From: Escherichia coli 042
Lineage (GTDB): Bacteria; Pseudomonadota; Gammaproteobacteria; Enterobacterales; Enterobacteriaceae
Assembly (NCBI RefSeq): GCF_000027125.1
Contig: NC_017626.1
DNA length: 64,000 nt
Strand: one strand, 5' to 3'
Part shown: piece after piece, positions 20,048 to 23,222 of the stretch
How the letters are laid out: every line of letters starts with the position of its first letter
Numbering within the stretch: position 1 is the stretch's first letter
The notes under the pieces: model-generated
What the model saw: the letters and a program-made list of their open reading frames with translations, nothing else
What the model was told of the DNA's origin: nothing
The model's database searches: none
Made by a program: the position numbers and the translations under genes

Positions 20048-20872
20048 TTACATATGTGCCGCGATTAACCGTTGGTTATCCTGGTACATTGCGAACAGGT
20101 AGTTGTTATAACTCTTCCCTTTGGTCGAGTAGCCCTTCAGCTTGTGAATCATCGCTGTGGCAGTCACTTCCTGATCCGCTTTACGCAGCTGCGCACGCGA
20201 TTTACGGAACGAAGAGTAAGCCGGATGCGTATTCAGGTTAGTGACATAGGCGCTCACCGATTCTTTGACAGAACTAAACTGTGAGTACCCCTTCACTTTA
20301 CCCGGCGCATTAGTACAACGTCCTTTCATGCATTTCATGCCGAACAGATTGTTGTTGTTGCGCGCCAGCTTCGACGTTCCCCAACCGCTTTCTGCTGCAG
20401 CCATCGTCGCTACCATACTGGTGGGGATAATGTCTACGCGTTCAAGCAAGGTATTCCACGGGATTTTTCGCGTATTACCAGACCACTTCACCTTGTAGCG
20501 TTTGGCGATGTCTTTCAGACGCGCACGCTCAGCAGGTGACCATTGGCCCTGATACTGTTTTGAAATCAGCCAGTTACGTTCCGCAGTAATGGCCGCATTT
20601 TGGCTGGTAATGTAAGGCATTACAGTCCGGAGAAACGCCTTTTTCCTTGGTGTTCCGGAAGGGTATTTTCGCAAATCAGGAAGTGAACTACTCTTTGCAC
20701 TATTGCGAGAATACTCTTGTTTACTGCTTACCTGTTTATTACTAGCTTTAGTTAAGTGGGACTTTTGACTCGCTGTTGTTGTGTGCGTCTTCGCTAACAC
20801 CTCACTCGAAAACACCAGAGTGAGTAACATAAGAATCATCGCCCCATATCGTCGTATGGGAGTCAAAATCAT
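20048..20872 (-). CDS. bax: Bax protein (glucosaminidase-like, DUF)
   Basis: 274 aa MILTPIRRYGAMILMLLTLVFSSEVLA...; matches recalled Bax. Confidence 0.88.
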   Translation of the reverse strand: MILTPIRRYGAMILMLLTLVFSSEVLAKTHTTTASQKSHLTKASNKQVSSKQEYSRNSAKSSSLPDLRKYPSGTPRKKAFLRTVMPYITSQNAAITAERNWLISKQYQGQWSPAERARLKDIAKRYKVKWSGNTRKIPWNTLLERVDIIPTSMVATMAAAESGWGTSKLARNNNNLFGMKCMKGRCTNAPGKVKGYSQFSSVKESVSAYVTNLNTHPAYSSFRKSRAQLRKADQEVTATAMIHKLKGYSTKGKSYNNYLFAMYQDNQRLIAAHM

Positions 20873-21100
20873 CAGGTCTCCTGGTCGGATTTAATCATTC
20901 CAACACCTTATATTTTTTACAAATTTGAGAGTTGAATCTCAAATCATATCAAAAATAGCTGTCAAGAGCACCCCAAGGAATAGTCCAAATCTGAAACTAT
21001 GTCACGAGTTAACGATTCAGATTGGCGCTAAATCGCAGAAAATGTGGGGTTTATCGCAAAATTCAGCCGTTTTTTGCGCGCGATCGCTCACCCTTGCTTC

Positions 21101-21130
21101 TCATCCTGTGGACTTAACGCTCAGGGATGA
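21101..21130 (+). promoter_or_regulatory. Candidate MalT boxes upstream of malS
   Basis: GGATGA hexamers at 21125-21130 (forward) and 21101-21106 (reverse complement) ~60-90 bp upstream of malS ATG; malS is a MalT regulon member by established knowledge. Confidence 0.35.
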
Positions 21131-21191
21131 GTTTTGTCTGGCTTATCGCTGGCAAACTGTCTGAAATCGCAGCAATAAGGACTCATCCGCC

Positions 21192-23222
21192 ATGAAACTC
21201 GCCGCCTGTTTTCTGACACTCCTTCCTGGCTTCGCCGTTGCCGCCAGCTGGACTTCTCCGGGGTTTCCCGCCTTTAGCGAACAGGGGACGGGAACATTTG
21301 TCAGCCACGCACAGTTGCCCAAAGGTACGCGTCCACTAACGCTAAATTTTGACCAACAGTGCTGGCAGCCTGCGGATGCGATAAAACTCAATCAGATGCT
21401 TTCCCTGCAACCTTGTAGCAACACGCCACCTCAATGGCGATTGTTCAGGGACGGCGAATATACGCTGCAACTAGACACCCGCTCCGGTACACCAACATTG
21501 ATGATATCCATCCAGAACGCCGTCGAACCGGTAGCAAGCCTGGTCCGTGAATGCCCGAAATGGGATGGATTACCGCTCACACTGGATGTCAGCGCCACTT
21601 TTCCGGAGGGAGCCGCAGTCCGGGATTATTACAGCCAGCAAATTGCGATAGTGAAGAACGGTCAAATAACGTTACAACCCGCTGCCACCAGCAACGGTTT
21701 ACTCCTGCTGGAACGGGCAGAAACTGACACATCCGCCCCTTTCGACTGGCATAACGCCACGGTTTACTTTGTGCTGACAGATCGTTTCGAAAACGGCGAT
21801 CCCAGTAATGACCAGAGTTACGGACGTCATAAAGACGGTATGGCAGAAATTGGCACTTTTCACGGCGGCGATTTACGCGGCCTGACCAACAAATTGGATT
21901 ACCTCCAGCAGCTGGGCGTCAATGCTTTATGGATAAGTGCCCCATTTGAGCAAATTCACGGCTGGGTCGGCGGCGGTACAAAAGGCGATTTCCCGCATTA
22001 TGCCTACCACGGTTATTACACACAGGACTGGACGAATCTTGATGCCAATATGGGCAGTGAAGCCGATCTACGGACACTGGTTGATAGCGCGCATCAGCGC
22101 GGTATTCGTATTCTCTTTGATGTCGTGATGAACCACACCGGCTATGCCACACTGGCGGATATGCAGGAGTATCAGTTTGGCGCGTTATATCTTTCTGGTG
22201 ACGAAGTGAAAAAAACGTTGGGTGAACGCTGGAGCGACTGGAAACCTGCCGCCGGGCAAACCTGGCATAGCTTTAACGATTACATTAATTTCAGCGACAA
22301 AACAGGCTGGGATAAATGGTGGGGAAAAAACTGGATCAGAACCGATATCGGCGATTACGACAATCCTGGATTCGACGATCTCACTATGTCGCTGGCCTTT
22401 TTGCCGGATATCAAAACCGAATCAACGACCGCTTCTGGTCTGCCGGTGTTCTATAAAAACAAAACGGATACCCACGCTAAAGTCATCGACGGCTTTACCC
22501 CTCGCGATTACTTAACCCACTGGTTAAGTCAGTGGGTCCGCGACTATGGGATTGATGGTTTTCGGGTCGACACCGTCAAACATGTTGAGTTGCCCGCCTG
22601 GCAGCAACTGAAAACCGAAGCCAGCGCCGCGCTTCGCGAATGGAAAAAAGCTAACCCCGACAAAGCATTAGATGACAAACCTTTCTGGATGACCGGTGAA
22701 GCCTGGGGCCACGGCGTGATGCAAAGTGACTACTATCGCCACGGCTTCGATGCGATGATCAATTTCGATTATCAGGAGCAGGCGGCTAAAGCAGTCGATT
22801 GTCTGGCGCAGATGGATACGACCTGGCAGCAAATGGCGGAGAAATTGCAGGATTTCAACGTGTTGAGCTACCTCTCGTCGCATGATACCCGCCTGTTCCG
22901 TGAAGGGGGCGACAAAGCAGCAGAGTTATTATTATTAGCGCCAGGCGCGGTACAAATCTTTTATGGTGATGAATCCTCGCGTCCGTTCGGCCCCACCGGT
23001 TCGGATCCGCTGCAAGGTACACGTTCGGATATGAACTGGCAGGATGTTAGCGGTAAATCTGCCGCCAGCGTCGCGCACTGGCAGAAAATCAGCCAGTTCC
23101 GCGCCCGCCATCCCGCAATTGGCGCGGGCAAACAAACGACACTTTCGCTGAAGCAGGGCTACGGCTTTGTTCGTGAGCATGGCGACGATAAAGTGCTGGT
23201 CATCTGGGCTGGGCAACAGTGA
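21192..23222 (+). CDS. malS: Periplasmic alpha-amylase
   Basis: 676 aa with signal peptide MKLAACFLTLLPGFAVAA and GH13 motifs (GIRILFDVVMNHTG; GFRVDTVKH). Confidence 0.96.
   Translation: MKLAACFLTLLPGFAVAASWTSPGFPAFSEQGTGTFVSHAQLPKGTRPLTLNFDQQCWQPADAIKLNQMLSLQPCSNTPPQWRLFRDGEYTLQLDTRSGTPTLMISIQNAVEPVASLVRECPKWDGLPLTLDVSATFPEGAAVRDYYSQQIAIVKNGQITLQPAATSNGLLLLERAETDTSAPFDWHNATVYFVLTDRFENGDPSNDQSYGRHKDGMAEIGTFHGGDLRGLTNKLDYLQQLGVNALWISAPFEQIHGWVGGGTKGDFPHYAYHGYYTQDWTNLDANMGSEADLRTLVDSAHQRGIRILFDVVMNHTGYATLADMQEYQFGALYLSGDEVKKTLGERWSDWKPAAGQTWHSFNDYINFSDKTGWDKWWGKNWIRTDIGDYDNPGFDDLTMSLAFLPDIKTESTTASGLPVFYKNKTDTHAKVIDGFTPRDYLTHWLSQWVRDYGIDGFRVDTVKHVELPAWQQLKTEASAALREWKKANPDKALDDKPFWMTGEAWGHGVMQSDYYRHGFDAMINFDYQEQAAKAVDCLAQMDTTWQQMAEKLQDFNVLSYLSSHDTRLFREGGDKAAELLLLAPGAVQIFYGDESSRPFGPTGSDPLQGTRSDMNWQDVSGKSAASVAHWQKISQFRARHPAIGAGKQTTLSLKQGYGFVREHGDDKVLVIWAGQQ

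Follow-up and report, generated by a model that had tools for sequence, protein, structure and literature searches.

Two hexamers stand in front of malS, the E. coli gene for a periplasmic amylase, and both match the core of the sequence that MalT recognizes. Do they belong to a MalT-dependent promoter, or are they there for some other reason? A MalT box is asymmetric, 5'-GGGGA(T/G)GAGG-3', with the core GGA(T/G)GA. This established consensus agrees with the boxes that we found in malPp, malEp, malKp, and malZp. An earlier note had pointed to the hexamers TCATCC at 21101-21106 (GGATGA on the − strand) and GGATGA at 21125-21130 (+ strand), about 60-90 bp before the malS start, and had read them as MalT boxes. 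Direct reading and a pattern search agree on both, and we measured them at 62-67 and 86-91 bp upstream of the ATG. We are highly confident that they are the cores of two of three MalT-binding boxes in a MalT-dependent malS promoter.

The window, i.e., the whole stretch of 64,000 nucleotides analyzed here, is a segment of the E. coli chromosome with the gene order xylH–xylR–bax(−)–malS(+)–avtA. The malS open reading frame runs from 21192 to 23222 (676 amino acids) and bears the same name in the annotation of identical E. coli genomes. The promoter region, ...GATCGCTCACCCTTGCTTCTCATCCTGTGGACTTAACGCTCAGGGATGAGTTTTGTCTGGCTTATCGCTGGCAAACTGTCTGAAATCGCAGCAATAAGGACTCATCCGCCATG..., aligns without gaps to that of MG1655, in which the malS start is at 3737497. 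A stretch of 428 bp around the hexamers matches many E. coli chromosomes with 100% identity, and 5423 of 5426 complete genomes contain it.

By sequence statistics alone, the hexamer pair is not significantly beyond chance. The window holds 32 copies of GGATGA, where 29.1±5.3 would be expected, and 59 copies of the 10-mer GGGGAKGAGG with at most 2 mismatches, where 65.5 would be expected; neither is enriched. A pair of GGAKGA cores in (−)/(+) orientation, 10-30 bp apart, is found once where 0.16 would be expected, and at least one such pair arises in 14% of Markov-1 simulations. The same holds for a triple within 90 bp, completed by a further core at 21183-21188 (one in the window against 0.09 expected; 9% of simulations). 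The pattern GGAKGA-N22-CAMACT has a single match in the window where 0.01 would be expected, a figure that must be read in light of the post hoc choice of pattern. Since the hexamer counts are not significant, the case for the boxes rests on their position, their architecture, and their conservation.

MalT-dependent promoters have a proximal box that is centered at about −37.5/−38.5, takes the place of the −35 element, and carries its core on the non-template strand, with two more boxes in direct repeat (10-bp boxes, 3 bp between them) upstream of it. malPp is the prototype of such a three-site promoter. The following boxes are found upstream of malS:

21123-21132, + strand: MalT box site 1 (proximal), AGGGATGAGT, core GGATGA at 21125-21130; 8/10 matches to GGGGAKGAGG
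21099-21108, − strand: MalT box site 2, CAGGATGAGA, core TCATCC (as read on the + strand) at 21101-21106; 7/10 matches
21086-21095, − strand: MalT box site 3 (distal), AAGGGTGAGC, core TCACCC (as read on the + strand) at 21088-21093; 6/10 matches

Sites 1 and 2 carry exact consensus cores, 24 bp apart in E. coli. Sites 2 and 3 form a direct repeat on one strand, with cores beginning at 21088 and 21101 and the 13-bp period of the two-box repeat. Site 3 is degenerate in E. coli: its core is GGGTGA, in which G replaces the A of GGAKGA, and for this reason it was invisible to the earlier note. That note read the hexamers correctly but missed site 3, the resulting 1+2 architecture, the −10 element, and a third exact GGATGA at 21183-21188. 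What it called paired hexamers are indeed both box cores, though not a self-contained pair, being sites 1 and 2 of three.

The remaining elements of the region are as follows:

21040-21061, no strand assigned: CRP-like site aaaTGTGGggtttaTCGCAaaa, centered at 21050.5, about −114.5 from the predicted start
21150-21158, + strand: putative extended −10, TGg-CAAACT (TGGCAAACT), hexamer at 21153-21158
21164-21166, + strand: predicted malS start in a conserved A-run 7 nt past the −10 hexamer, with 21165 as +1
21177-21181, + strand: malS Shine-Dalgarno sequence AAGGA, of which AGGA is conserved in the alignment
21183-21188, − strand: third exact GGATGA, in the decamer GCGGATGAGT (21181-21190; 8/10 matches), between the Shine-Dalgarno sequence and the ATG
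21192-21194, + strand: malS ATG, conserved in the alignment

The site 1 core begins 28 bp upstream of the −10 hexamer CAAACT. With the start at 21165, the predicted malS leader is 27 nt long, and the box centers would lie at about −37.5 (site 1), −61.5 (site 2), and −74.5 (site 3), which would put site 1 in the usual place of a −35 hexamer. This numbering is predicted, since the −10 is itself assigned from sequence; our literature search found no experimentally mapped malS start, footprint, or ChIP data. A start near 21165 fully agrees with the positions of the hexamers. A consensus scan of 20800-21300 found no sigma-70 −35/−10 pair, which fits an activator-dependent promoter, and a terminator scan was likewise empty. 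AGTTTT stands 17 bp upstream of CAAACT; the promoter appears to lack a functional −35 hexamer and would be silent without its activator.

Farther upstream, the CRP-like site contains TGTGG-N6-TCGCA at 21043-21058, which matches the TGTGA-N6-TCACA half-sites at 8 of 10 positions. The block AAAATGTG…TATCGCA is kept in Escherichia, Citrobacter, Salmonella, Enterobacter, and Kosakonia and is weaker in Klebsiella, and the only E. coli SNP within the site, at 21050, falls in the N6 spacer. malS was among the known CRP targets recovered by genomic SELEX, in a text that carries no site coordinates (PMC3105977).

How well is this arrangement kept? MalS relatives with 75-93% protein identity were taken from 80 species-representative Enterobacteriaceae genomes, giving 81 promoters in all, and 22 upstream regions from 22 genera were aligned with MAFFT without anchoring. 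In the unanchored alignment, the boxes and the −10 stand out as islands of identity amid diverged spacers: ATCRCTCAYCC, TCMTCC, GGAKGAGT, TGGCAMACTG, the A-run at 21163-21166, the Shine-Dalgarno sequence, and the ATG. The most conserved promoter block is CTCAYCC, which is site 3. In 81/81 promoters the site 1 core precedes the −10 hexamer by 28 bp, a count to which the anchored profiles contribute, since site 1 and the −10 owe some of their conservation to the anchoring; the unanchored alignment gives the same columns, and by chance the anchoring rule would be matched about 0.02 times per locus.

The pattern of change within the cores follows the MalT consensus. Position 4 of the site 1 core is T in 48 species and G in 33, with no other base. 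In site 2, the third base of the core (+ strand) is A in 29 and C in 52, i.e., T/G on the box strand, and the core T, C, C, and C are invariant or nearly so. The sole variable core position in sites 1 and 2 is thus the exact T/G degeneracy of the MalT consensus. Site 3 is always 13 bp upstream of site 2, and its base 21091 is C in 50 species, T in 22, and G in 9. In the 22 species with T, site 3 has the canonical core TCATCC, of which TCACCC in E. coli is a degenerate form. The MalT-box reading of both hexamers is borne out by a malPp-like spacing that is kept in the 81 species.

The putative −10 hexamer is also well preserved, position by position: C in 80/81, A in 81/81, A or C, A in 79/81, C in 70/81, and T in 81/81, with the preceding T and G of the extended −10 in 63/81 and 73/81. 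At 21164-21166, A is found in 76-80 of the 81 species. Box columns have an information content of 1.3-2.0 bits, compared with 0.04-0.5 bits in spacer columns. Within E. coli, SNPs at 21050, 21081, 21117, 21138, and 21189 (eight strains) all fall outside the boxes and the −10. A search for the best decamer gave registers shifted by 3 bp in some GGAGG-rich sequences, and sites 2 and 3 were therefore scored jointly; there is no strong alternative register in E. coli malS, and ties occur only in Enterobacter-type sequences. Across the Enterobacteriaceae, the elements of the malS promoter are under purifying selection.

Sites 1 and 2 are separated by one of three distances: 40 species have 23 bp, 32 have 24 bp, and nine have 14 bp. 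These nine 14-bp loci belong to Kluyvera, Trabulsiella, and Pseudocitrobacter (L036, L038, L043, L053, L055, L058, L062, L073, and L079), and their equivalent of the spacer 21107-21124 lacks about 10 bp. The loss amounts to one helical turn, which leaves sites 1 and 2 on the same face of the DNA. The 14-bp spacing is a natural variant of the MalT three-site module.

The third exact GGATGA, at +19..+24 of the predicted transcript, differs from the other two. It is found in Escherichia only, inside 3 nt that other genera lack, and two genomes of the Escherichia clade (L012 and L018) already carry a mutated copy. We set it aside as a functional activation box on account of this restriction and of the mutations in sister clades. 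For the same reasons we treat it as probably a chance match that lies outside the activation module. It is a long shot that the 21181-21190 box (GCGGATGAGT) binds MalT and damps malS, or acts in RNA, and that the 14/23/24-bp quantization reflects the geometry of the MalT multimer; if true, the quantization would say something new about how that multimer is arranged on DNA.

One genome stands apart. In E. coli NCCP 13906, homology to the malS promoter ends just after the predicted start (21167/21168) and is followed by TGAACCGCCCCGGAAATCCTGGAGACTAAACTCCC..., which looks like the end of an IS3-family insertion sequence. No feature is annotated at the break. Such an insertion would uncouple malS from its MalT promoter in this strain.

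Altogether, these observations suggest how the malS promoter would work, along the lines established for MalT promoters. MalT, activated by maltotriose and ATP, would multimerize and cooperatively occupy the three malS sites. Site 1 (21123-21132) would take the place of the −35, about 37.5 bp before the start, while sites 2 and 3 (21099-21108 and 21086-21095), in the opposite orientation to site 1, would be occupied as a direct repeat 13 bp apart. Bound MalT would then recruit sigma-70 RNA polymerase to the extended −10 TGgCAAACT (21150-21158), which lacks a usable −35, and malS transcription would begin near 21165. From its site, another 50 bp or so upstream, CRP probably contributes catabolite control. 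The sequences, their spacing, and the malPp-like layout are read directly from the DNA; from these we infer where transcription starts, that MalT occupies its boxes, and what CRP does.

Schneider, Freundlieb, Tapio & Boos reportedly described MalT boxes upstream of malS in 1992, and the published malS promoter (malSp in RegulonDB/EcoCyc) is not known to differ from the one seen here. The earlier note also placed malS in the MalT regulon, and the literature agrees: malS is counted in the mal regulon under the control of MalT and CRP (PMC4451989), and the title of Schneider et al. 1992 calls it "MalT-dependent" (J Biol Chem 267:5148). It is co-induced with malPQ and malZ (PMC9472385). MalT is described as multimerizing upon inducer binding and then binding MalT boxes cooperatively (PMC4381067; PMC10427625). 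Given this literature on malS as a member of the MalT/CRP regulon, the element is the known malS promoter, an ordinary MalT-activated promoter.

The bax side of the spacer has features of its own. On the − strand at 20872-20898, the bax leader contains an 8-codon upstream open reading frame, ATG ATT AAA TCC GAC CAG GAG ACC TGA, whose stop overlaps the bax start codon (TGATG; TAATG in other genera). Of 75 Enterobacteriaceae loci, 68 retain both its ATG and the overlap of stop and start. Its final five codons (TCCGACCAGGAGACC, including the bax Shine-Dalgarno sequence) are near-invariant in nucleotides, and codons 2-3 are free to vary. This frame could encode a coupled leader peptide or act as an RNA/Shine-Dalgarno element. 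The bax-proximal spacer, 20900-21005, holds blocks that are better conserved than the malS promoter:

20921-20941: palindrome TTTGAGA-N6-TCTCAAA, conserved block
20946-20956: TATCAAAAATA, conserved block
20979-21005: AATAGTCC..TCTGAAACTATGTCAC, conserved block

Shimada 2014 listed "constitutive" promoters bound by RpoD holoenzyme, TTCACA-17-TCAAAT and TTGATA-18-TCAAAT, in the bax–malS spacer (PMC3946193). On the + strand, TTTACA(20913)-17-TCAAAT(20941) would give malS a leader of about 245 nt, which brings to mind the "malS-5'UTR" RNA of S. Typhi.

Could the boxes then serve a different transcript, with only the proximal box and the −10 acting on malS, and the boxes at 21086-21108, or the whole block, acting on the divergent bax gene or on a long malS leader begun at a constitutive promoter upstream? 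RNA polymerase holoenzyme does bind the bax–malS spacer, with promoters proposed both ways (PMC3946193), a long "malS-5'UTR" RNA is reported for S. Typhi, and conservation is even higher in the half of the spacer next to bax. However, the boxes lie about 215-260 bp from the bax ATG, yet their distances from the malS −10 are canonical for MalT; a proximal site preceded by a 13-bp direct repeat is the malPp layout, and the proposed constitutive promoter elements, at 20913-20951, are outside the boxes. We consider this division of labor very improbable, though the rest of the spacer may serve bax or a long leader initiated upstream.

A second possibility is that CTCATCC-N18-GGATGAG acts as a single inverted repeat, either the operator of a dimeric regulator other than MalT or a DNA/RNA hairpin. 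In E. coli the arms are perfect over 7 bp, but among the 70 species with canonical cores, 30 have non-complementary arms (TCCTCC/GGATGA in 22; TCATCC/GGAGGA in 8). The T/G states of the two arms vary independently, and this lack of covariation leads us to reject a hairpin or palindromic operator. The distance between the arms has three values (14, 23, and 24 bp), and the left arm is locked at 13 bp to the directly repeated third box. In addition, the repeat lies upstream of the putative start and would thus be absent from the short transcript, and a search of 20700-21400 gave no Rfam match, which also counts against a hairpin. This explanation is extremely unlikely. So too, with next to no probability, is the view that the hexamers are chance copies of a common 6-mer with no regulatory role: the unenriched GGATGA count, the frequency of simulated pairs, and the accidental look of the third copy at 21183-21188 agree with it, but in 81 species both cores are invariant save for the permitted T/G amid spacers that are saturated with change, their distances to the −10 and to the third box copy malPp, and E. 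coli SNPs avoid both cores.

The reading of the hexamers as sites 1 and 2 of a three-box MalT promoter gives the full malS control module with coordinates: three MalT boxes, an extended −10, a predicted start, and a CRP-like site. The spacings in 81 species amount to a phylogenetic footprint of a classic activator-dependent promoter, and our understanding of the maltose regulon is unchanged. The case also indicates that genuine activator boxes can be recognized from a bare reading of the sequence.

How does malS compare with the other MalT promoters? We scanned the MG1655 upstream regions of malP, malE/malK, and malZ with the rule used for malS. malPp (CTTGCTCATCCCCGCAACTCCTCCCTGCC...CGCAGGATGAGGAAGGTCAACATCGAGCCTGGCAAACTAGCGATAACG) has the − strand boxes GGGGATGAGC and AGGGAGGAGT, 13 bp apart, and the + strand box CAGGATGAGG 23 bp downstream of that pair; the CAGGATGAGG core begins 28 bp before TGGCAAACT. 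malPp and malS thus share the order and orientation of the boxes, the 13-bp repeat, and the 28-bp spacing from core to −10; the extended −10 TGGCAAACT is identical in the two, and both are without a −35 consensus. Applied to malPp, the rule that transcription starts 7 nt after the hexamer places the sites at −37.5, −60.5, and −73.5, the values in the Raibaud and Richet literature. The two promoters differ in the distance from site 1 to site 2, which is 24 bp in Escherichia, Citrobacter, and Salmonella malS and 23 bp in malPp, although 40 of the 81 malS orthologues share the malPp spacing. They also differ in the distal box, which is degenerate in E. coli malS (GGGTGA core), unlike that of malPp. 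In malS, a CRP-like site precedes the boxes by about 50 bp; the comparison with malPp covers the region from the boxes to the −10.

malEp and malKp, divergent promoters under a nucleoprotein complex of MalT and CRP, share a 271-bp control region with more boxes, registers that overlap with a 3-bp offset, and several CRP sites, as known from Richet and Raibaud. In our scan of malE–malK, such overlapping registers offset by 3 bp were seen in, e.g., GGGGAGGAGG, GAGGAGGCGG, CGGGAGGATG, and GAGGATGAGA. Upstream of malZ we saw a GGGGAGGAGG/GAGGAGGACG pair, with a proximal box that appears degenerate (GATGATGAGT). The supplement of one study maps the malE start at −44 relative to the ATG, a single nucleotide away from the malEp start already known (PMC2760140). 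This mapped start puts the malEp core center about 38-39 bp upstream, which fits the 7-nt rule within 1-2 nt. As in malS, a proximal + strand core, here GGAGGA, precedes the −10-like hexamer of malEp and malKp by 28 bp (xAxAxT; GAAACT and CATAGT), and further MalT boxes lie upstream; the control region of these two promoters includes CRP sites. In contrast to the more elaborate malEp/malKp region, malS is a simple three-box module with a single CRP-like site.
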